NCBI GenBank assembly: GCA_963662545.2
Contig: CAXXLL010000002.1
Coordinates: 416,001-480,000, forward strand
Origin: Gammaproteobacteria bacterium
Lineage (GTDB): Bacteria > Pseudomonadota > Gammaproteobacteria > Ga0077536
Length of the DNA stretch: 64,000 nt
Reading direction: 5' to 3'
Each line of letters opens with the position of its first letter. The first letter of the stretch is position 1. Below are positions 7,127-36,922 of the stretch, in pieces. A program made the position numbers and the translations under genes. The notes under the pieces are model-generated. The model had not been told where the DNA came from. It ran no database searches and worked only from the letters and a program-made list of their open reading frames with translations.

Positions 7127-9756
7127 GATGCCACGCGCTCTACTTTGACAAAGCGCTCGAGCAGTGCCGGTAACACGACCAGCGTGCACAGGATGGTCAG
7201 GGTCAGACCGATGGTGAGCATCACGCCCATGCTTGCCGTACCCGCATGCGTTGAAACCGCGAGGTTGCCGAAACTCGCGGTGGTCGTCAAAGCGCTGAAC
7301 AGGACAGCGCGTGCAGTGCTGGTCTTCAGCAGCGGGCCGTCGCCGGGACCGGGGGTCTTGTAGCGGTGCAGGATGTGCAGAGCGCTATCGACGCCGATCC
7401 CCATGAGGAGCGGCAACGCGATGATATTCGCGAAGTTGAACGACATGCCCGCCCACACGGTGGCGGCCGTCGTCAGTAAACCGGCCAGCAACAGGGGGGC
7501 CATGACGACGAGGACTTCCGCAATGCGCCGCAGTATGAAGAAGAGCACCAGTGCAATCAGTATAAAAGCCGAGGCGAATGCCTGGTAAAAGGCGCCCGTG
7601 ACCGCGCGACTCGCCTCGATATTGATCACCGGCGTGCCGGTCGCCGCAGGTCCCGTAATGGCCCGTACGGCGTCGACGAATGCCGCGAGCCGGTCGTTGT
7701 CGTCGAGGTTTTGCGCCGGGAGAATCTCGAGCCGGAAAAGGCCGTCATCGCTGATCCAGCGCCGCCGGAGATCCTCGGGAAGCGACGCGATATCGATCGG
7801 CGACGCCGCTAGCCCCTCGGAAATCAGCGTGAGTTGAGGCGCGAAATGGCGCATGAGTTTGTCTTCGAGCGCGATTAACAAAGCCGGCGCCTGGTCTGCT
7901 CCCGCGGATTCGACCGCGACCTCCAGGCGCTTCAACGCGAGCGCTAGCGCTGCTGCCGCTCGCGCTAGCGATGCGCTGGCGCTGTTGGCAATCGCATCGC
8001 AGCGACGGCTGAGTTTTCTAGCGAGCGCGGTGATATCGCCTGCGACAAGCGGGTGTGGCTCTTGGAGTTCGAGATCGGGTCCGACGACGAAAGCGAGATC
8101 CTCGATAAGGGCGAGTTTTTGTTCTTGCTCGGACGGCACCAGATCGAATGCCGTCCGCACGTTCAGAACAGCGGGGCTCTCCTCGAGTCGAGCAGCCAGT
8201 TCCAGGGCGGGGTCGGCGGACGCGGCGACCACGTCGATTGCGTAGAGTTCGGCATCGCCGTCGTCCAGAAGATCCGTCAAGGTCGTCACCGATTCGGCAG
8301 CGGGATCGTTGAGGTGGATGGGATTGTGGTCGAATTCCGCGAATGGCACGGTCAAGGCCGCCGCGAGCGCGAGTAAGAACGTCCCGGCCAGGATGATCGA
8401 CGGTCCGCGCTGCGGCCGTTCGGCGATGAGCTGGACTTTTCGCCGAGCATCAGCTCTAGGCGCGGGTAAGGCTTGCAGCAGCGCCGGCAGGATCGTAAAG
8501 CTGCAGCCCAGCCCGATGAACATCCCGACGCCCGAGATCAGACCGAGCTCCGCGACACCGCGGTAGTCCGTCGGGATAAACGCGAAGAACGCGATCGCGG
8601 TCGTTATCGCGCACAGGATAATGGATGTTCCAATGTGACGCGATGCATGAGAAATGGCGCGAACCTTATCGGTTGAGATGGACATTTCGCGGTAGCGCAG
8701 GCAGATGTGAATGGCGAAATCCACGCCCAGCCCCACGTAGAGTACGGCGAATGCGATCGAGATCATGTTCAGCGTGCCGACTGCCGCGACCGCAAAGCTC
8801 GCGGTAAAGATCAGACCGATGATCAGGGTGAGCAGGGTTGCCGCGACGAGACTCAAGGAGCGCAGGCCGACGATGAGGCAAATAGCCACCATGGCAAAAG
8901 CGAGCACGCCGGCCCGTTCGGCGCCCCGCACTACGCTCTTCATCTCGTCATAGCTCAGCGCGGCGGCGCCGGTGAGACGGACGCGAACGCCCGATCCCTC
9001 GGTAAAGCCCATCGACTCGACGGTGCTGCGTATCGATGTAATCGCCGCTTCGCCCGGCAGAATGCTGCTGAAATCGAGCCGCGGCTGTACTGTGAAAATG
9101 ACGCGCGAAGTATCGGCAACGGACTCGCCCAGCATCAAGGTCTGCCACGACATGGGCGTCGGGTCGCCGTCAAGGTAGGCGTTGATGGCGTCTGCGGTGG
9201 CGCGGAAAACAGGGTCGAGCCGGAGTTCGGGCGCCTGATCCCTGGTCTCGGCGGCTTCGAGGAGTAATGTCATGAATCCACGCAACCCGGGGTCCGGCGC
9301 GAGGCGTGCGAGAAACGGCTGTGCGGCGCTGATTTCGTCCGCGAGTGTCTGCAGGGCGTCGGTGTCAAGGTAGAGGAATTGATTGCGACGAAAGAATTCG
9401 ATGCCGGCCGGATGAAAGACGCCGGCCGCGGTGAATTCGTTTTCGGCCAGGCGCCGGGCGAGCGCATCGGACGCTTGGCGCGCGAGGTCGGGCGTCGTTC
9501 CGTCGACGACCACGACGATGGTGTCGGTGAAAAAAGGAAATGCGGTTTTGAAATTCCTGTACGCCACTCGCCAGGGGAGACGATCGGACAGCATGTCCTG
9601 GGTATCGGTGTTGATGCGCACATTAGAGACGGTGTACGACGCACCGGTGCCGGCGAGGACCAGCGCGAAAATCAAGGTCGCGAGCCAGTGCCGTTGCGCG
9701 GCGCCGACTATTTTCTCAATCAGGTCCGGAGCGAGCAGCTCGAAGCGGTTGCGCAT
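7123..9756 (-). CDS. hpnN: Hopanoid-associated RND/MMPL transporter
   Basis: Two MMPL repeats (GLGVDFAIH, GIGVDSALH) and FFRRNQFLYL. Confidence 0.88.
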   Translation of the reverse strand: MRNRFELLAPDLIEKIVGAAQRHWLATLIFALVLAGTGASYTVSNVRINTDTQDMLSDRLPWRVAYRNFKTAFPFFTDTIVVVVDGTTPDLARQASDALARRLAENEFTAAGVFHPAGIEFFRRNQFLYLDTDALQTLADEISAAQPFLARLAPDPGLRGFMTLLLEAAETRDQAPELRLDPVFRATADAINAYLDGDPTPMSWQTLMLGESVADTSRVIFTVQPRLDFSSILPGEAAITSIRSTVESMGFTEGSGVRVRLTGAAALSYDEMKSVVRGAERAGVLAFAMVAICLIVGLRSLSLVAATLLTLIIGLIFTASFAVAAVGTLNMISIAFAVLYVGLGVDFAIHICLRYREMSISTDKVRAISHASRHIGTSIILCAITTAIAFFAFIPTDYRGVAELGLISGVGMFIGLGCSFTILPALLQALPAPRADARRKVQLIAERPQRGPSIILAGTFLLALAAALTVPFAEFDHNPIHLNDPAAESVTTLTDLLDDGDAELYAIDVVAASADPALELAARLEESPAVLNVRTAFDLVPSEQEQKLALIEDLAFVVGPDLELQEPHPLVAGDITALARKLSRRCDAIANSASASLARAAAALALALKRLEVAVESAGADQAPALLIALEDKLMRHFAPQLTLISEGLAASPIDIASLPEDLRRRWISDDGLFRLEILPAQNLDDNDRLAAFVDAVRAITGPAATGTPVINIEASRAVTGAFYQAFASAFILIALVLFFILRRIAEVLVVMAPLLLAGLLTTAATVWAGMSFNFANIIALPLLMGIGVDSALHILHRYKTPGPGDGPLLKTSTARAVLFSALTTTASFGNLAVSTHAGTASMGVMLTIGLTLTILCTLVVLPALLERFVKVERVAS

Positions 9757-25931: not shown

Positions 25932-26078
25932 CATGTCCGCAGTTGGCCGGGAGCCACCCAACGCCATGTTTGCGTCATCAAACGCTATCGGACGACCGCT
26001 TACGAGCGCATTGCAGACGTAACCTAGAGCGGTGCTGCACAGCCGCGATTCGGCCGCTGACGACCCGAAGGCGGCATC
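25932..26078. repeat. Dispersed repeat A: three short imperfect palindromic units at ~59-bp period
   Basis: Units near 25933, 25991 and 26051; homologous to repeats B and C. Confidence 0.65.
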
Positions 26079-26770: not shown

Positions 26771-26909
26771 CTGGCGCGAGCGGATGCCCCGCATCATGGT
26801 CACGCCGCCGAACGCTACTCGACGACCGCTTACGAGGGTACTGCAGACGTAATCTCTAGCTGTGCTGCACTGCGGCGAGGGGGCCGCTGACGACCCAATA
26901 TAGCGGCCA
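26761..26909. repeat. Dispersed repeat B
   Basis: AACGCTA..GACGACCGCTTACGAG..TGCAGACGTAA..GTGCTGCAC..GGCCGCTGACGACCC is shared with repeat A. Confidence 0.75.
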
Positions 26910-27048: not shown

Positions 27049-28914
27049 CTATTCGGGGATCTCGAACGCGATCAGTACGTTTCCGGGCAGCCCAAAATTG
27101 AACTGATCCAAGCCGGATGAAACGTATAAGCGGTTTTTCACGATGACGGGCCCCCCGAACGAGCCGAGCCCCCCACCGAACCCTTTGCGGCCGTTAACCG
27201 TTTCATACTCGCGCACCGTATCAAATGTCCACACCGGCTTCCCGGTCGCGGTATCGTAAGCGCGCAGTACGCCGTCGGCGGTGCCCGTGAAAACGACGTC
27301 GCCCGCCACGGTACTGGGCAAGGTAAAGGCATTGCTGCACGGTGGTGTCGTCTTACCTTTACAATCCGGCGTCATATCCTGTATACGCCATACGGACTCA
27401 CCGGTCAGGAGATCGACCGCCGTGAAGGAGCCGTTCGCCTTCCAGTCCACATCCATATCGATGACGGGTACGTAGGCATTTATGCCGTCGCTCGAGAATC
27501 CCCACTCGATACCGCCGAGCTCTCCGCCGGCGCCGAGGCGGATCTGCCACAGGACTTTGCCGCCGTCATCCGGATCCAGGCCGTAAAGCATGCCGTCCTT
27601 GGATCCGGTCACGATGATCTCCTTACCATCCGATCGTTCCACCAGCACCGCGGGAGCCACGATATCCCGGTCACCATGTCCCGTCGGGTTTAAGGGCGAA
27701 CAGGTTTTCTGTTCGGGATCCACCCACTTTTCGCAGCCCAGGTGGTAGATGTCCTGGCCGCCCATCTGCTCGGGCGCCAGTGATTTCACCCAACGCTTGG
27801 CGCCCGTTTTCATGTCCAACGCCAACATGGCGTCGGATTCGGGCACGACCGGCTCGGTCATCTGGTTGCCGGTTGGCACGTAAAGGAGGCCGCGCTTGTC
27901 GTCGACCGTGACGGCCGAGAACACCACGACCCCCGAGGGACCGTAGCGATTCGTGCCGGCTTTCGTCGTGCCCAGATACCCGAATTCCTTGTCGATGGTG
28001 TAAGACTTCCACTTGCGCTCGCCGGTACGCAGGTCATAGGCGACGATGCTGCCGCGAAACGTACAGCACGGGTATTCCTTATTTTTGCCAATATTGAGCA
28101 CTTCTTGGAGGGAGGACACGGGCACGTAAACCATGCCGTCGTGCGCCGTCACGTTGCCCGTAATGCGTGAAGTCGGCGTCCAATCCGCCCGGTCGCGCCA
28201 CAGCAATTGGCCCGTTTCCGCATCTACAGCGTAGACGTTGGCCGCCGTATCGCCAAACACGGCGATACCGTCGGACACGGCGATGTTCGACCTGATCCGC
28301 CATTCCGCCCGGAATGCCCAGTGCGCGCACCCGGTGTCCGCATCGAGCGAGTAGGCCCATTGATTGAGGTTACCCACGAACAATCGGTCGCCCACGACGG
28401 CGACCGGGTGCCCACCACCCTTGGACGCGTGGACCTGCGGGAAGGCCACGGCCCACTTGACCTTGAGGTTCGCTAACCCCGCAGCGGTGAGCTGCGCATT
28501 AGTCACATGCCGGTTGTAGCGGTTGTCGTTCGACAGTCCAGGCCAGTCATGCTCCGCATCGGGTACCAGCGGCGTCTTGTCTTTGCACATGGTCACGCCG
28601 GCACCGCGCGTGCCCTTTTCGGGTTTGTGCCCCGCGATCCACTTGGCTATCGTCCATCGCTTCGCATCGTCCATGCCATTGGCGAACTGTGCCATGACGC
28701 CGAACCACAGTTCCTTGTGAATTTCCTCTGCAGTCATGTTCGATAATGCCGTCAACGATGGGGAAATTGTGGCGCGCCCGTGGCATTCGATACAGTGTTC
28801 GGCGTACAGTGCGGCGCCGTCCAGTCCCTTCGACTTTTCGGTTGCCGGTTCGGCATACGCTGCGAGCGACGCGAACAGGGATCCAAACAGGGGTAACAGG
28901 TGCAGATTTCTCAT
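27049..28914 (-). CDS. Quinohemoprotein PQQ-dependent dehydrogenase with an N-terminal cytochrome c (polyvinyl alcohol dehydrogenase-like)
   Basis: Signal peptide, CIECH heme motif, PQQ beta-propeller repeats, YPCCTFRGS, C-terminal PGNVLIAF. Confidence 0.85.
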   Translation of the reverse strand: MRNLHLLPLFGSLFASLAAYAEPATEKSKGLDGAALYAEHCIECHGRATISPSLTALSNMTAEEIHKELWFGVMAQFANGMDDAKRWTIAKWIAGHKPEKGTRGAGVTMCKDKTPLVPDAEHDWPGLSNDNRYNRHVTNAQLTAAGLANLKVKWAVAFPQVHASKGGGHPVAVVGDRLFVGNLNQWAYSLDADTGCAHWAFRAEWRIRSNIAVSDGIAVFGDTAANVYAVDAETGQLLWRDRADWTPTSRITGNVTAHDGMVYVPVSSLQEVLNIGKNKEYPCCTFRGSIVAYDLRTGERKWKSYTIDKEFGYLGTTKAGTNRYGPSGVVVFSAVTVDDKRGLLYVPTGNQMTEPVVPESDAMLALDMKTGAKRWVKSLAPEQMGGQDIYHLGCEKWVDPEQKTCSPLNPTGHGDRDIVAPAVLVERSDGKEIIVTGSKDGMLYGLDPDDGGKVLWQIRLGAGGELGGIEWGFSSDGINAYVPVIDMDVDWKANGSFTAVDLLTGESVWRIQDMTPDCKGKTTPPCSNAFTLPSTVAGDVVFTGTADGVLRAYDTATGKPVWTFDTVREYETVNGRKGFGGGLGSFGGPVIVKNRLYVSSGLDQFNFGLPGNVLIAFEIPE

Positions 28915-29003
28915 GGTCCGATCTCCCGACATCGTCTTATTGGATGTTCACCCGAGGGCAGTTCTGAAAGCGTAGCAAATCTCGACGAACACCGTTTATA
29001 TTC

Positions 29004-29136
29004 GGGACCGCTCTTAGCCGCGAGCCGAAGTCAAGCGCTGCGATGCTTTTTATGAGAAGGGAATGGCCGTTTACGAGGGTATCCCAGACCTAACCTCTAG
29101 CATTGCTGCACTGCCGCGATCCGGCCGCTGACGACC
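29004..29136. repeat. Dispersed repeat C (third unit split by a MITE and intron; resumes at 29951)
   Basis: CCGTTTACGAGGGTA..CTCTAGC..TGCTGCACTG..GGCCGCTGACGACC. Confidence 0.7.
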
Positions 29137-29293
29137 TATTGTGTTGAAAAAGTCCGGTTCGCCGTCGGTCGCGATGTGCGTAGAAAAACCGACCGCGCAG
29201 GATCGCCTGTAAGCGACGATCGGCACTCCGGTAATGGTTTGACGACCCCCAAATTTATCGAAATCCTATGCTGCACGACTTTTTCAACACAAT
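29137..29293. mobile_element. ~159-bp MITE (last 2 nt displaced to 29949-29950 by the intron); GACC duplicated on both sides
   Basis: IRs ATTGTGTTGAAAAAGTC / GACTTTTTCAACACAAT; internal CTGTAAGCGACGATC shared with the attC MITEs. Confidence 0.8.
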
Positions 29294-29948
29294 GTGTGCC
29301 ACGAGGCACTGAAGAGATAGGGGGTCACTGAAAGTGTCGTAACTCTAACAGAGATGGAGGTAGGTCCTCCAAAGCCGCCCTGCAGGGGGGGGCTTTAAAC
29401 CACCCTAAGCTGCTCCGGTCAAGAGCCGGGGTGGTGAGCGTTAGGGAAAAGGCGTCGCAAGAGGCGTCAGGTGAGAAACAGAGAGACGAGCGCAAGCGAA
29501 CCACTGCTGAAGCGTCGAAAGAAAAATCGGGTGACATCAAAACCGAGTCTGATTGTGTGGCTCGGGAGGGATCCAGCGGGTGCCTGCTGATTGGCTGGGT
29601 GGTGTCCGGTGTATAGGTGGCGTGACGCTGTTTCGGGCTTTGTTAGGGAACGTGGGAACCTGTCGCTTGGATGTCAAGGGAGAAGTTTAAGTGGTCAACG
29701 CCACGAGAACGAGCGTACCAATGCCAGGCACAGGGGCGGAGCAACTCGTAGTAGTGATGAAGCGGGGTAATGCCCGTGGAGCGAAGGGGTTGCGTCATTC
29801 AGTCTCAGGATTGGGTCAACCCGTCAGGGGAGGAGCCCATGAGTGAGACAAAGCCGTTTCTCGGCTGAATGATGGGAGCCGGATGAGCGGAGACGTTCAC
29901 GTCCGGTTCTACGAGGGCCTCGGGGTGAAACTCCCCGGGGCTACTCAC
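29294..29948 (+). ncRNA. ORF-less group II intron (probably bacterial class D-like; RT/maturase gene deleted)
   Basis: 5' GTGTG; domain V GAGCCGGATGAGCGGAGACGTTCACGTCCGGTTC (29876-29909); domain VI ending CTACTCAC; residual 9-codon ORF MSETKPFLG* (29839-29868) with GAGGAG RBS. Confidence 0.9.
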
Positions 29949-30062
29949 CAGACCCTAAACGGCCATCGGCGAAAATCGAATAACTCATCCTGACAGTTTC
30001 GAGTAGGGGAACTCTTGTCGGCGCGGTATCCTTGCGCCTTGGGTATGCGCGAGGGGTGTCCG

Positions 30063-30407
30063 ATGAAGAAGTTTTTGCTTATTCCTTTGCTGTGCGTTTC
30101 GGGGAATGTCGCGGGGGGAGAGTACGGGGTATTCAAGAGCGGCAACGAATTGTTGTCGGACTGCACCGAGACTTCCCGAGGACTGAATTACATGCACAGC
30201 CTCGGCTACATAGCGGCGGCTGCCGACACCCATGACGTTTGGGTGACCTGGGGCGACTTACACAGAAAAATATGTACGCCATTAGAGGTCCCGCAAGAAC
30301 AGCTCAGGCGCGTCGTCGTGAAGTACCTCGAAGAGCGCCCCGCACTATTGGACACAATGGGCAGCGATGGCATCGATCGCCGTGTGAATGCCAAGCATCA
30401 CGTGTGA
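30063..30407 (+). CDS. Rap1a/Tai-like immunity protein, C-terminus possibly truncated
   Basis: Signal peptide, SGNELLSDC, GYIAAAAD, ICTP...QLRRVVVKYLEERP. Confidence 0.65.
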   Translation: MKKFLLIPLLCVSGNVAGGEYGVFKSGNELLSDCTETSRGLNYMHSLGYIAAAADTHDVWVTWGDLHRKICTPLEVPQEQLRRVVVKYLEERPALLDTMGSDGIDRRVNAKHHV

Positions 30408-30414
30408 AGGAAGC

Positions 30415-33400
30415 ATGCTGGAGCTTACTAACAAGCGCTCATCGGTTTTAGCCAGGGGTATCGTAGCCCGGAAATCCTGGGTCCTCATCGTCGCTGCGGT
30501 CTGCGTGAACGCTTCGGCGGGTGGGCCACAGGCGGCCGCGGCGGATGATGCTGGAGCGCGGCCGCCGAAGCTCGAAAGCGCAGACGCGAGGCGTTCGCGT
30601 ATCGCGCGTGAATTCCGCTCGGGCGTGGAGATTCTCGCCGCCGACGACATGCAGGGACGTGGGCTCGGAACGGCGGGTCTGAGCCGCGCTGCTTCCTGGA
30701 TCGAGGGCCGACTGCGCGACCCAGGGTTCGATCCGGCGTTCGGATCGAGCTACCGGCAGAACTTCCAGGTGAAGGTGGGCGTGGCGCTTGTGGGGCGGAA
30801 CGAGCTCAAGGGAGTTGCCGATGGGGACTGGACACCGCTCGGGATGTCCAGCAACGGAGGGTTTTCCGGAGAATTGGCGTTTGTCGGATACGGCATCGAG
30901 GCGCCGCCAATCGGCTTCCGCGAACTCTCCGGTCTCGACATCGAAGGCAAGATCGTGCTCATGCTCAGGTATGAGCCGCAGGAGCGGGACGAAGCATCGC
31001 CGTTCAACGGCAAGAAGCCGAGCCGTTGGTCGGCGCTACGCTACAAGATCCTCCAGGCGCGCGAGCGCGGTGCTGCAGCGGTGATCTTTGCCACGGGACC
31101 CCTTCAGGACGAAAGCGAGGATCGCATCCCGGCCCTGACGAACGACGGCCCGGAGAGCCCGTCCGGCATTCCCGTGATCCAGGTCAGGACGTCCGTCGCC
31201 CGTCGTTGGCTCAAGCAGGCGGGCATCGATCTCCAGGCGTTTCAGGAACAGGTCGATCGGGATCTCGTTCCACGCTCCAACGACGCGACGGGGATTCGCC
31301 TCGAAGGCCACGTCGAGCTAGCGGCCACCTATGAGGACGTGGTGAATCTCGCCGGCGTTATCTCGGGGCGGGGTATCTTCGCGAGTGATGTCTTGGTGGT
31401 CGGCGCACACTACGATCATCTTGGGATGGGGGGCGATCGGTCGATGCGGCCCAACGAGTCCGCGATCCACAACGGCGCGGACGACAACGCATCTGGGACG
31501 ATGGCAGCTATTCAGATAGGCGAGGAGCTGAAGTCGGTGCTGGCGCGCGAGAGCGATCACAGGACGGTTGTCGTGGCGCTCTTCTCGGCCGAGGAGGTAG
31601 GCCTCGCAGGATCGGCCAGGTTCGTCGAGGCGCCTCCGTTTCCCATGGAGCGCCATGTTGCGATGGTCAATCTCGACATGGTGGGCCGGCTCAAGGACGA
31701 CACTCTGATCGCGTTTGGGTCGGAGTCTGCATCGGAGTGGGGGGATTGGATCGATCGCGCCAGGCGAGCGGTCCCGGGCCTGAAGGTGACGAGCAGCGGC
31801 GACGGCTATGGTCCCTCCGACCAGACGAGTTTCTATGCAGCGGGCGTGCCGGTCCTGCATTTGTTCACCGGCTCCCACGATGCGTACCACACGCCGGATG
31901 ACACAGCGGACACGGTGAACGCCGATGGCGGCGCGCGCGTCGTCGCCTTCTCGACCTCACTCCTCAGGGACTTGGCCGTGCAGCCGGTGCGGCTCACCTA
32001 CGAGGGCGCCGGCGCTGCACCCACGATGTGGGGCGACAGCCGTGGCTTCGGTGCGTACCTCGGCACGATCCCCGACTACACGGCGATGGAATCTGCCGAA
32101 GGCGGCGTCCTTCTTGCCGACGTGCGCAAGGGCGGTCCGGCGGACCTCGCTGGTATCCGCGGGCGAGATAGGATCGTCAAGATGGCGGGGACGCGTATCG
32201 AGAACCTTTACGACATGACGTACGCGCTGCAAGACAGCAAACCCGGGCAGACGATCGAGGTCGTTGTGGTACGGGACGACAAGGACCTCCGGTTCCTGTC
32301 GACGCTCGGGGATAGAGCCGCCATGGCGAAGCAAGGGGAAGAGGGTGAAGCCGAGAAGGATCGCGACCCCGCGGCCATGCACCCGTCTCTGCCTGCGGCC
32401 CCGCCACCAAAGGAGGCGGTAGTCGCCGCAGCGGAGGATGTCGCCGCGTTCTATCGCGGCCGACCTGGCGACGACTTTCGCGTTGGGGCGGGCAAGCCAT
32501 TTCTCGACACGGTCGAGCACGAAAGGCACCTTGCTGAAATTCGCCAACTGACGTTCGGCGGGGAGAACGCCGAGGCGTACTTCAGTCCCGACGGCAGGCG
32601 TCTCATCTATCAGGCGACGGTCCCCGGCGCAGACTGCGATCAGCAGTACGTCATGGATCTCGGCACTGGAGATTCCGAGCTGGTGTCCTCCGGCAAGGGA
32701 CGCACCACGTGCGGCTATTTCGACTGGCCCGAGGGCGACCGGATCGTCTACGCGTCCACCGAGACGGCCGGCGACGAGTGCCCACTGCCGCCCGACCACT
32801 CGCGCGGTTACGTCTGGGCCTTGTACGACACGTTCGACATCTTCGAGGCGCGCCCCGACGGCTCGGGAGCGCGTCGCCTCACTGAAAGTCCGGGCTACGA
32901 CGCCGAGGCGACGTGGTGTCACCGCGGCGGGGAGATGGTCTTCACGTCGATGCGCGACGGTGATCTGGATCTCTACGCGATGGACGAGGCGGGCAACGTG
33001 AGGCGACTGACGCAAGAGGAGGGATACGACGGCGGCGCGTTCTTCAGCCCCGACTGCTCCGAGATCGTCTGGCGAGCGAGCCGCCCAGAAGGCGAAGACC
33101 TGGTGGCGTACCGCCGGCTCCTGTCCCAGAACCTGATCCGGCCGACGGCTCTGGAGATCTTCGTTATGAACGCCGATGGTTCGGCCATTCGTCAACTCAC
33201 GGCCAACGGTGCCGCCAACTTTTGTCCGACCTTCACGGCGGACGGCTCGAAGATCGTCTACGCCTCCAACTATGCCTTCGAGGCGGGCGCCGCGCGTCCC
33301 CGCGAGTTCGATCTGTGGCTCGTGGACAAGGCGGGCGGTGAGTCCGAGCAGGTCACGTTCGCGCGAGGCTTCGATGGCTTTCCGCAATTCAGCCCCGACG

Positions 33401-33483
33401 GTCGCTGGCTCGTGTGGGCTTCGAACCGAGCCGATCCGGGGTCGGGCGAGACGAACATCTTCATTGCACGATGGGTGCCGTGA
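30415..33483 (+). CDS. M28 aminopeptidase (PA + M28 + PDZ) fused to a C-terminal TolB-like PD40 beta-propeller
   Basis: GAHYDHLG, NGADDNASG, SAEEVG, NLDMVG, YHTPDD; PDZ YLGTIPD; propeller repeats AEAYFSPDG, GGAFFSPD, GFPQFSPDG. Confidence 0.88.
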   Translation: MLELTNKRSSVLARGIVARKSWVLIVAAVCVNASAGGPQAAAADDAGARPPKLESADARRSRIAREFRSGVEILAADDMQGRGLGTAGLSRAASWIEGRLRDPGFDPAFGSSYRQNFQVKVGVALVGRNELKGVADGDWTPLGMSSNGGFSGELAFVGYGIEAPPIGFRELSGLDIEGKIVLMLRYEPQERDEASPFNGKKPSRWSALRYKILQARERGAAAVIFATGPLQDESEDRIPALTNDGPESPSGIPVIQVRTSVARRWLKQAGIDLQAFQEQVDRDLVPRSNDATGIRLEGHVELAATYEDVVNLAGVISGRGIFASDVLVVGAHYDHLGMGGDRSMRPNESAIHNGADDNASGTMAAIQIGEELKSVLARESDHRTVVVALFSAEEVGLAGSARFVEAPPFPMERHVAMVNLDMVGRLKDDTLIAFGSESASEWGDWIDRARRAVPGLKVTSSGDGYGPSDQTSFYAAGVPVLHLFTGSHDAYHTPDDTADTVNADGGARVVAFSTSLLRDLAVQPVRLTYEGAGAAPTMWGDSRGFGAYLGTIPDYTAMESAEGGVLLADVRKGGPADLAGIRGRDRIVKMAGTRIENLYDMTYALQDSKPGQTIEVVVVRDDKDLRFLSTLGDRAAMAKQGEEGEAEKDRDPAAMHPSLPAAPPPKEAVVAAAEDVAAFYRGRPGDDFRVGAGKPFLDTVEHERHLAEIRQLTFGGENAEAYFSPDGRRLIYQATVPGADCDQQYVMDLGTGDSELVSSGKGRTTCGYFDWPEGDRIVYASTETAGDECPLPPDHSRGYVWALYDTFDIFEARPDGSGARRLTESPGYDAEATWCHRGGEMVFTSMRDGDLDLYAMDEAGNVRRLTQEEGYDGGAFFSPDCSEIVWRASRPEGEDLVAYRRLLSQNLIRPTALEIFVMNADGSAIRQLTANGAANFCPTFTADGSKIVYASNYAFEAGAARPREFDLWLVDKAGGESEQVTFARGFDGFPQFSPDGRWLVWASNRADPGSGETNIFIARWVP

Positions 33484-36845: not shown

Positions 36846-36922
36846 TGGTCGGGGTGACAGGATTCGAACCTACGACCCCTGCCTCCCGAAGGCAGTGCTC
36901 TACCAGGCTGAGCTACACCCCG
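36846..36922 (-). tRNA. tRNA-Pro(CGG)
   Basis: CGGGGTGTAGCTCAGCCTGGTAGAGCACTGCCTTCGGGAGGCAGGGGTCGTAGGTTCGAATCCTGTCACCCCGACCA. Confidence 0.97.

Follow-up and report, generated by a model that had tools for sequence, protein, structure and literature searches.

The window considered here, a stretch of 64,000 nucleotides (nt) from a gammaproteobacterial genome (G000, 5.58 Mb in 3 contigs, completeness 96.85%; window G000:C2:416001-480000), carries a group II intron without an open reading frame (ORF), inserted one base short of the tip of a MITE (miniature inverted-repeat transposable element). This intron is very probably a member of a lineage whose homing target is the terminal inverted repeat of an IS1182-like insertion sequence (IS) and its MITEs, of which it would be a stranded orphan left without a reverse transcriptase (RT). 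The positions of the intron, its parts and its neighbours are collected in Table 1.

The locus is a IIB-type ORF-less group II intron with defined boundaries. A sequence-only reading of the stretch had already proposed such an element, and both of its Rfam matches lie above their gathering thresholds: besides the domain I match listed in Table 1, RF00029 (domains V and VI) matches 29874-29949 on the forward strand with 54.9 bits against a threshold of 40, over model positions 1-77 of 77. No RT-sized ORF is present between the two Rfam pieces in the ORF list of the window. The hallmarks of group II introns are also found, namely GTGTG (GUGUG in the RNA) at 29294, GAGC at 29876 and a bulged adenosine, A29943, and the 3' end reads CC instead of AY, as it does in many relatives. 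The RT/maturase gene is reduced, as had been suggested, to the peptide MSETKPFLG (29839-29868; codons ATG AGT GAG ACA AAG CCG TTT CTC GGC TGA). The domain IV stub in which this remnant lies folds into a hairpin, AGCCG-UUUCU-CGGCU (29852-29866), and the same stem encloses the ORF in full-length relatives.

The 3' boundary, which had been placed at 29948, falls one base further on. C29949 is taken as the last intron base because several comparisons agree (here and below a slash marks the insertion point). In the five other full MITE copies the sequence is ...CAACACAAT/A, followed directly by their flanks. In a relative from the same genus (G001), the frame of an IS6-like transposase (...LDE/VFVRING...) is restored only with an intron end ...CUCGAC, and in a full-length relative (G025), whose intron-encoded protein (IEP) has about 415 aa, the frame of an IS3 transposase (...TDI/TYLR...) is restored only with an intron end ...CUCACC; across the wider family the 3' ends read CUACUC(A/G)(A/C)C.

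The exon-binding sites (EBS) of the intron match the intron-binding sites (IBS) of the 5' exon without a flaw, with EBS1 (7/7) and EBS2 (6/6), at positions fixed by homology, forming 13 of 13 Watson-Crick pairs with TTTTTC-A-ACACAAT. The exact complementarity between GAAAAA (29521-29526) and TTTTTC (29280-29285) had been noticed beforehand. A second complementarity had been read across the insertion site as ACACAAT/CA; its ACACAAT part stands and its CA part does not, since the intron ends with C29949, and A29950 cannot pair with the G preceding EBS1. Both sites fall in loops on folding, as the same reading had anticipated, and the 9-nt loop of the EBS1 hairpin, TGATTGTGT, is wholly unpaired in both the minimum free energy and the centroid folds.

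Covariation among relatives supports both predicted sites. In a comparison of 42 aligned related introns, 41 of which are ungapped at EBS1 and give 39 distinct intron/exon pairs, EBS1 forms a mean of 6.08 of 7 pairs with its own exon, as against 4.39 +/- 0.16 (maximum 4.95) in 1000 shuffles of the exons. For EBS2 (38 distinct pairs from 42 rows) the corresponding values are 4.08 of 6 against 3.64 +/- 0.14 (maximum 4.05), and 0 of 1000 shuffles reach the observed mean. The EBS2 signal comes mainly from one sub-clade, in which GCGTAG or GCGTAT stands opposite exon [CTAG]TA[CT]GC with 5-6 of 6 pairs and the same 6+1+7 geometry; in these relatives GCGUAG at the homologous EBS2 position faces CUACGC in the exon. 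It might be supposed that the complementarity is incidental and that the intron arrived by recombination or within a larger transposed block, since it is present as a single copy and there are many IS elements and rearrangements nearby. Such an origin is extremely improbable and already largely refuted: the insertion is exact to the base when set against the five empty MITE copies, the 13 pairs fall at homology-fixed positions and are accompanied by covariation in the family, the same junction recurs in at least eight other sequence contexts, and the target duplication abuts the tip of the MITE and not the intron.

The host element is a noncoding sequence of 158 bp with 18-nt inverted ends, represented in the genome by six full-length copies (157/158 bp, 90-100% identity) and four partial matches. 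GACC flanks both sides of three of the six full copies, that of the window being one of them, and the other three have unlike flanks. An IS of 1.62 kb (C2:1713459-1715080), bordered by a 4-bp duplication, GGAT, ends in the same 18 nt; because the IS shares its ends, the small element is assigned to an IS1182-like family as a MITE, and the IS is its likely parent. The transposase of this IS (444 aa) combines DUF772, DDE_Tnp_1_6 and DDE_Tnp_1, the domain set of IS1182/IS5-type elements. The exact 14-nt target of the intron occurs at 11 sites in the genome, all of them ends of the IS/MITE family, of which one is filled and ten are empty, including the opposite end of the same MITE. Thus, of the proposal that the target is the MITE inverted repeat, the repeat end holds and the restriction to the MITE does not: what the intron targets is the repeat end that the IS1182-like IS and its MITEs have in common. 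With the intron one base from its tip, this end of the MITE would be disabled.

Relatives at the same target are found well beyond this genome. Public contigs were scanned for the junction TTTTTCAACACAAT/GTGYG, a search that by design finds only copies at this target. Species genomes gave 6 matches with 1 intron (L151, in a Binatia metagenome-assembled genome, MAG), metagenomes gave 25 matches with 8 introns, 7 of them distinct (L153, which equals L177, L155, L158, L160, L163, L167 and L169), and a scan for the repeat variant ACAGAAT gave 10 matches with 1 intron (L188, in a Gemmatimonadales MAG); the remaining junction-scan matches are due to chance. In total, nine introns (eight distinct) occupy the ACACAAT junction and L188 occupies the ACAGAAT junction. 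The expectation that other copies should follow ...TTTTTCAACACAAT is therefore borne out by the nine introns outside the genome and finds no support inside it, where the only other copy is a fragment with a different 3' exon.

The same-target introns are 84-95% identical to that of the window. In a tree of 44 rows, which includes the six clade members with enough sequence and excludes L121, L080, L032 and L042 as long branches, the window intron and five same-target relatives form one clade with 100% support in the Shimodaira-Hasegawa-like approximate likelihood ratio test. An earlier tree that grouped the window intron with L080 and L032 was rejected as long-branch attraction, which was resolved by adding close relatives and dropping the long-branch rows. 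The nearest relative, L163 (90% over 525 columns), is the full-length, RT-encoding relative whose existence had been anticipated, and it lies outside this genome. Its IEP of 415 aa contains RVT_1 (133 bits) and GIIM (61.3 bits) and no other domains, and its host is a full-length IS with the same repeat end, in whose right repeat the intron is inserted; the transposase of that IS (458 aa) shares 59% identity with that of the IS in this genome. Three further same-target introns bear an ORF (L151, L158 and L188), and L160 is ORF-less through a different, in-frame deletion (...KPLVS/WRLGSPFSAE, then stop). The left repeat lies 217-218 nt upstream of the junction in L155, L160, L167 and L169, so these sit in MITEs of another length. 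The 3' exon begins with A in each same-target relative and continues as GGCC or GACC. EBS2 is GAAAAA in all clade members seen, and EBS1 is AUUGUGU in the window intron, AUUCUGU in L160 and AUUUUGU in L163, L158 and L188, variants that fit the C/G polymorphism of the repeat.

Two side observations concern the contigs of these relatives. The metagenome contigs of L153 and L177 match only positions 1-222 of the intron and diverge close to the EBS2 position, which may reflect another insertion or a rearrangement. The contig of L163 contains a c-di-GMP-I riboswitch at 7940-8054 (50.4 bits), unrelated to the intron.

Within the genome under study there is one full copy of the intron. Profile searches of the assembly gave 0 matches to RVT_1 or GIIM, and tblastn of the genome with the IEP of L163 found no IEP-like sequence (best E 0.14). 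The second copy is a fragment on the reverse strand (C2:1713391-1715102), corresponding to intron positions of about 570-656 with 96% identity over 69 nt. It is split inside domain V by the full-length IS1182-like IS with its GGAT duplication, and its upstream part is cut off by an IS256-like element, of which 15 further copies are present. The nesting of the two partners is hence reciprocal: at the second locus the IS lies within the intron, and in the window the intron lies within the MITE of that IS. The 27 nt that precede GGCUGAAUGA in the fragment are unlike the domain IV stub of the window intron and align with the 5' end of the ORF, at positions 569-604 of three relatives (3, 12 and 25 of 500 shuffles reach the score), which suggests that this copy may be another ORF deletion variant. 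The alternative assignment of these 27 nt, before GGCTGAATGA, to the 3' end of the ORF was rejected, with a best score of 18 versus a shuffle mean of 17.7.

It is because the genome has no RT or maturase, ten of the eleven targets are empty and the other copy is fragmentary that the intron is regarded as a stranded orphan. It is not currently mobilised in this genome, and the part of the sequence-only reading that presented mobilisation in trans as the present state is set aside on the missing RT and the empty targets. A non-autonomous retroelement now active in trans in this genome and spreading among MITE ends would accord with the perfect EBS/IBS match, with the ten further exact targets on offer, and with an intact ribozyme whose sequence turns up in RNA libraries; however, it would have to do so with no RVT_1, GIIM or IEP-like sequence in the genome, with even the other end of its own MITE among the ten empty targets and with a broken fragment as its sole other copy, and this makes it very unlikely.

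Several observations weigh against a stranded member of a lineage dedicated to this target. With regard to the pairing, four EBS1 rows reach just 4 of 7, some of the automated 5' boundaries being wrong, and the EBS2 covariation is weak beyond the closest sub-clade, with 1 of 6 pairs in G025. With regard to target specificity, exact scans for the EBS1 hairpin gave no match in genome_contigs or metagenome_contigs, and a scan with the EBS2 region, in which the target was not named, gave two chance matches, neither of them an intron, so that members of the clade at other targets are possible; the recurrence of the junction and the autonomous relative are shown, and a location of every clade member at this target is not. 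With regard to the genome, at 96.85% completeness the assembly could lack a plasmid-borne RT; the 3' exon of the second copy starts with G instead of A and its 5' exon is lost, so its original site may differ; and a single full copy means that homing is not directly seen here. Lastly, RNA libraries may contain DNA, and a promoter scan found 0 promoter-like sites upstream of the intron.

The probable order of events can be reconstructed from the nested sequences. The 158-bp MITE would have landed in an attC-like repeat, duplicating GACC, and because this duplication abuts A29950 the MITE appears to have been intact at landing and, in this lineage, the intron to have come second. The intron RNA would then have entered the right repeat of the MITE by reverse splicing between T29293 and A29950, guided by the 6-bp EBS2/IBS2 pairing, a one-base linker and the 7-bp EBS1/IBS1 pairing, and would have been copied into DNA by an RT acting in trans. 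The ORF was presumably lost when the stretch separating the arms of the domain IV stem was deleted, which left MSETKPFLG and its stop codon.

The ribozyme itself is well preserved. In 40-sequence alignments it keeps 166 of 170 near-invariant columns in domains I-III and 43 of 43 in domains V-VI (209/213), and of the pairs in a consensus derived without it, 121 of 124 and 26 of 26, respectively (family median 97.6%); together with the Rfam score, these values agree with the earlier impression that domains V and VI look intact. Three metatranscriptome runs from two studies furthermore yield contigs of 321-374 nt with 0-1 differences (99.7-100% identity) over 29480/29492-29812/29853, this evidence consisting of assembled Logan contigs that cover the intron interior only and show neither exon nor a joint from 29293 to 29950. 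As identity to the nearest known relative is only about 90%, these contigs may be ascribed to the intron of this or a near-identical strain. Given the preserved pairs and invariant positions and the near-identical contigs in RNA libraries, the ribozyme is probably, though by no means certainly, still competent for splicing. The intron lies in an intergenic region between divergent genes, so that the host has no need of splicing, and an IEP, needed by related introns like RmInt1 for splicing in vivo, is missing from the genome; with no promoter-like site found, it is possible, if somewhat unlikely, that the intron arrived as set out above, no longer splices and owes its structure to lack of time for decay. 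Such a dead relic would nonetheless have to be about 10% diverged from its nearest relative and yet keep 121/124 and 26/26 pairs and 209/213 columns, and to have counterparts of 99.7-100% identity in three RNA libraries.

The same preservation of structure without an RT, and the same RNA contigs, could also be read as signs of domestication, with the intron benefiting the host by locking a MITE/IS end or as a structured RNA upstream of a Rap1a-like gene. The intron lies 114 nt upstream of this forward-strand gene (30063-30407), and an insertion one base from the tip would part the cleavage site from the repeat. We give this little credence, as only 1 of 11 ends is filled and the second copy was left to break, and as the comparison with G001, where another intron occupies another site, gives no sign of a locus conserved across species. 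A stranded orphan of a homing lineage, probably retaining a functional ribozyme, is the reading that we prefer.

The wider family was sampled with a domain V pattern scan, which found at least 114 loci; 115 matched stretches were examined for domains I-III upstream. Among the matches listed, 54 of the 115 have these domains, and they comprise 13 ORF-less introns (gap 69-97 nt), 1 with a partly deleted ORF and 40 with an ORF of about 1.2-1.3 kb. The ORF-less introns are scattered across the tree and each has its own loop on the retained domain IV stem, which indicates that the ORF was lost many times in the family. A single ancestral ORF deletion common to G000 and G001 was likewise rejected, as their domain IV loops differ and the G001 intron groups elsewhere, with an ORF-less intron of Rhizobium leguminosarum at the same IS6-like target and with an S. 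meliloti intron, while the closest kin of the G000 intron are the metagenomic copies of 84-95% identity. The targets of the family are mostly genes of mobile elements: the YADD codons of other intron RTs, IS3 transposases and IS6-like transposases.

Some individual loci deserve mention. In a sister clade, ORF-less introns occupy the same codons (...LDE/V...) of IS6-like transposases at L005 (G001:C17, about 1432-2112) and at L146 (2448-3088); the latter is on an alphaproteobacterial (Rhizobium leguminosarum) plasmid and G001 is of the same genus as G000, so that one target is used in distant hosts. In the G001 genome, too, a profile search found no GIIM. Insertion directly behind the YADD codons of another intron's RT gene (...RYADD/GTGTGCC) is seen in many relatives. 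Loci of such intron-in-intron homing include L139 and L145 (pSymA/pSymB of S. meliloti ml59), and L145 has two full copies head to tail. The matches on S. meliloti plasmids were considered as RmInt1 or RmInt2 and rejected, being the YADD-targeting intron instead; L067 was also rejected as RmInt1.

RmInt2 of Sinorhizobium meliloti GR4 (class D/IIB3) comes closest as a precedent; according to the available parts of two papers it homes into the inverted repeats of ISRm17 (PMC4615759, PMC5894124). As far as these texts extend, the likeness lies in natural targets that are terminal inverted repeats of an IS, with two potential sites per element, and in an IEP without an endonuclease (En) domain (PMC4615759, PMC5894124). 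Unlike RmInt2, which in the same texts carries its IEP and is active, the window intron is ORF-less in a genome without an RT; in RmInt2, IBS2 and IBS1 are there set 2 nt apart and EBS2 pairs over 4-5 bp, as opposed to 1 nt and 6 bp here. The window intron has for its host a MITE from an IS1182-like family, and ISRm17 was compared by its published description in those parts, not by repeat sequence. RmInt1 and its target ISRm2011-2 are similar in IS specialisation and in a single-nucleotide IBS2-IBS1 linker (available text of PMC4615759), and in the accessible part of a second paper RmInt1 insertion is said to block the spread of the IS (PMC5894124). However, RmInt1 inserts in the transposase gene and carries an IEP, whereas the window intron lies in the repeat and is ORF-less. 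The combination of RT and maturase without En in the IEP of L163 is a trait of class D/IIB3, though not one specific to class D, as the consulted part of another paper reports it in classes A, C, E and F as well (PMC3552965). For the clade, class D and class E are the candidates.

A second comparison concerns the loss of the ORF. Bacterial group II introns without an ORF are described, in the part of the source at hand, as rare and as sharing their genome, in nearly all cases, with a related IEP, C.te.I1 being the sole known exception (PMC4424553). C.te.I1 of Clostridium tetani resembles the window intron, going by that part, in having lost its IEP and kept its ribozyme in a genome without an IEP, and differs in lying within a gene and splicing alternatively, the window intron being in an intergenic MITE. 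A 2022 survey treats ORF-less introns as a category, to judge from the part available (PMC8919778). With 13 of 54 ORF-less in the family sample, among the matches listed, the label 'rare' may not hold. ORF-less bacterial introns were reportedly treated by Simon et al. in 2008 and those of Thermosynechococcus by Mohr et al. in 2010, and archaeal and bacterial introns homing into other mobile elements are said to have been described by Dai and Zimmerly in 2002 and 2003. These last introns and the wider family target coding sequences of mobile elements, in contrast to the noncoding repeat end used by the clade of the window intron.

Group IIC-attC introns recognise stem-loops, have an IBS1 of 3-4 nt, no EBS2 and a shorter domain V. 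The window intron shares with them surroundings that are like cassette arrays, but has an EBS2 (6 bp), an IBS1 of 7 nt, a domain V of 34 nt and a MITE repeat as its direct target; membership in this group was rejected, as EBS2, IBS1, domain V and target all differ. IIB introns have been reported in integron surroundings, according to the part of the paper that was accessible (PMC7923331). The 'MITEtron' of Ca. Thiomargarita nelsonii is, in the portion of its description at hand, a MITE within a group I intron (PMC4853749), and this nesting is reversed here, where a group II intron targeted by base pairing lies within a MITE. No description of a group II intron within a MITE was found in the literature searched, subscription journals being outside its scope. 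The homing mechanism is thus known, and the new details are the MITE host, the reciprocal nesting and the RT-less genome.

The system offers a natural, sequence-defined pair of a group II intron clade and a transposon repeat end, with autonomous and non-autonomous forms of both partners at hand (IS and MITE, IEP-encoding and ORF-less intron), and it is an unusually clear case, found in nature, of a genomic parasite that specialises on a second one. It opens the questions of how ORF-less introns move, whether an insertion near the tip blocks transposition and how EBS follow target polymorphism. ORF-less bacterial introns in RT-less genomes are moreover very few, and this one enlarges a group which in the available part of one source has C.te.I1 as its only member (PMC4424553). 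The hosts of the same-target clade include a Gemmatimonadales MAG, a Binatia MAG, several metagenomes and this genome, and at least three different ORF deletions are seen, in the window intron, in L160 and, as it appears, in the fragment at the second locus. A bolder generalisation, which we regard as doubtful, is that the clade lives on the noncoding ends of one IS/MITE family across distant phyla, repeatedly shedding its ORF and borrowing RTs from transient relatives, and that where RT-less it persists as self-splicing, transcribed ribozymes which cap and immobilise transposon ends, in a three-way parasite-on-parasite system with reciprocal invasion.

The MITE itself lies in a repeat of about 75 nt that resembles an attC site, such that the intron is nested in the MITE and the MITE in the repeat; copies and flanks confirm these three nested elements and the GACC duplication, both of which had been recognised from the sequence alone. 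The repeat reads ...GCTGACGACC/CAAAGCGGWCAT, and BLAST finds 91 copies genome-wide in co-oriented clusters on both large contigs, spaced roughly 0.6-3 kb apart, two others in the window being at 25996-26065 and 26826-26895. Of these 91, 56 are uninterrupted, with the consensus C-A-A-A-G-C-G-G-W-C-A-T after ...GACGACC, 27 contain another IS end (CAGRSTGTSYGAAAAC) exactly at the insertion point of the MITE, 5 contain the end of this MITE/IS and 3 a third element. An uninterrupted paralogue of the insertion site at C3:355015 reads ...GACGACC/CTAAACGGCC. A DNA contig joining 29132 to 29951 (818 nt skipped) was not counted as an empty allele, as it may derive from this paralogue. Canonical attC sites have R''/R' cores of the form RYYYAAC ... 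GTTRRRY; the outer inverted repeats here, determined by eye, are GACCGCTT.../...AAGCGGTC, with GTA instead of the expected GTT. Two integron integrases are encoded in the genome, scoring 462.5 and 461.1 bits with TIGR02249 (cut-off 265), and comparison of the BLAST copy list with their positions shows no listed repeat copy adjoining either intI. The repeats are possibly attC sites of scattered cassette arrays and a hot spot for several site-specific elements.

Table 1. Features of the intron locus and its neighbourhood (positions in the window)
Feature	Position	Strand	Basis or remark
Left part of ~75-nt attC-like repeat, ending ...GCTGACGACC	29067-29136	+	flank BLAST against the genome
Target-site duplication GACC, left copy	29133-29136		repeated at 29951-29954
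MITE body, 157 nt, no ORF; 158th base, A29950, beyond the intron	29137-29293	+	6 full-length copies; ends TATTGTGTTGAAAAAGTC...GACTTTTTCAACACAAT(A)
MITE left terminal inverted repeat; second exact 14-nt target, empty, on the opposite strand	29137-29154	+	copy comparison, target count
MITE right terminal inverted repeat, interrupted by the intron one base short of the tip	29277-29293	+	copy comparison
IBS2, TTTTTC	29280-29285	+	complement of EBS2; 6+1+7 geometry as in relatives
IBS1, ACACAAT	29287-29293	+	complement of EBS1; covariation over 39 distinct intron/exon pairs
ORF-less group II intron, 656 nt, GUGUG...CUACUCACC	29294-29949	+	Rfam, empty-site comparison, boundaries of relatives
Domain I part matching RF01999 (group-II-D1D4-2)	29356-29472	+	Rfam, 115.7 bits, E 3.3e-23, gathering 36
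EBS2, GAAAAA, in a loop closed by GUCG/UGAC	29521-29526	+	fold; homologous position in relatives
EBS1 hairpin CCGAGTC/GGCTCGG; EBS1 AUUGUGU at 29552-29558	29543-29565	+	fold, covariation
RT/maturase ORF remnant MSETKPFLG-stop, in domain IV stub	29839-29868	+	N-terminus like MVEAKPF of L163
Domain V, 34 nt, AGC triad, GAGA loop, 2-nt bulge	29876-29909	+	Rfam alignment, fold
Domain VI, bulged branch-point A29943, six bases before the 3' end	29912-29947	+	Rfam alignment, fold
First 3'-exon base, A, the last (158th) MITE base	29950	+	other copies ...ACACAAT/A; L160, L163 and L188 also A at +1
Target-site duplication GACC, right copy	29951-29954		sequence; abuts A29950
Right part of attC-like repeat, CTAAACGGCCAT	29955-29966	+	consensus of uninterrupted copies
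Pyrroloquinoline quinone (PQQ)-dependent dehydrogenase with cytochrome c domain	27049-28932	-	neighbour
Rap1a-family immunity-like protein, 114 aa, 114 nt downstream of the intron	30063-30407	+	neighbour
M28 peptidase with PDZ and PD40 repeats	30388-33483	+	neighbour
tRNA	36849-36922	-	neighbour

One further repeated sequence was observed in this part of the genome. An abundant element end, tggtgtcgatgaTTGTGTGGAAAATcagaggtttgaagttccatt, has several dozen identical copies on both large contigs, apparently three of them within the C2 span of the window, and the element to which it belongs resembles a high-copy IS or MITE.

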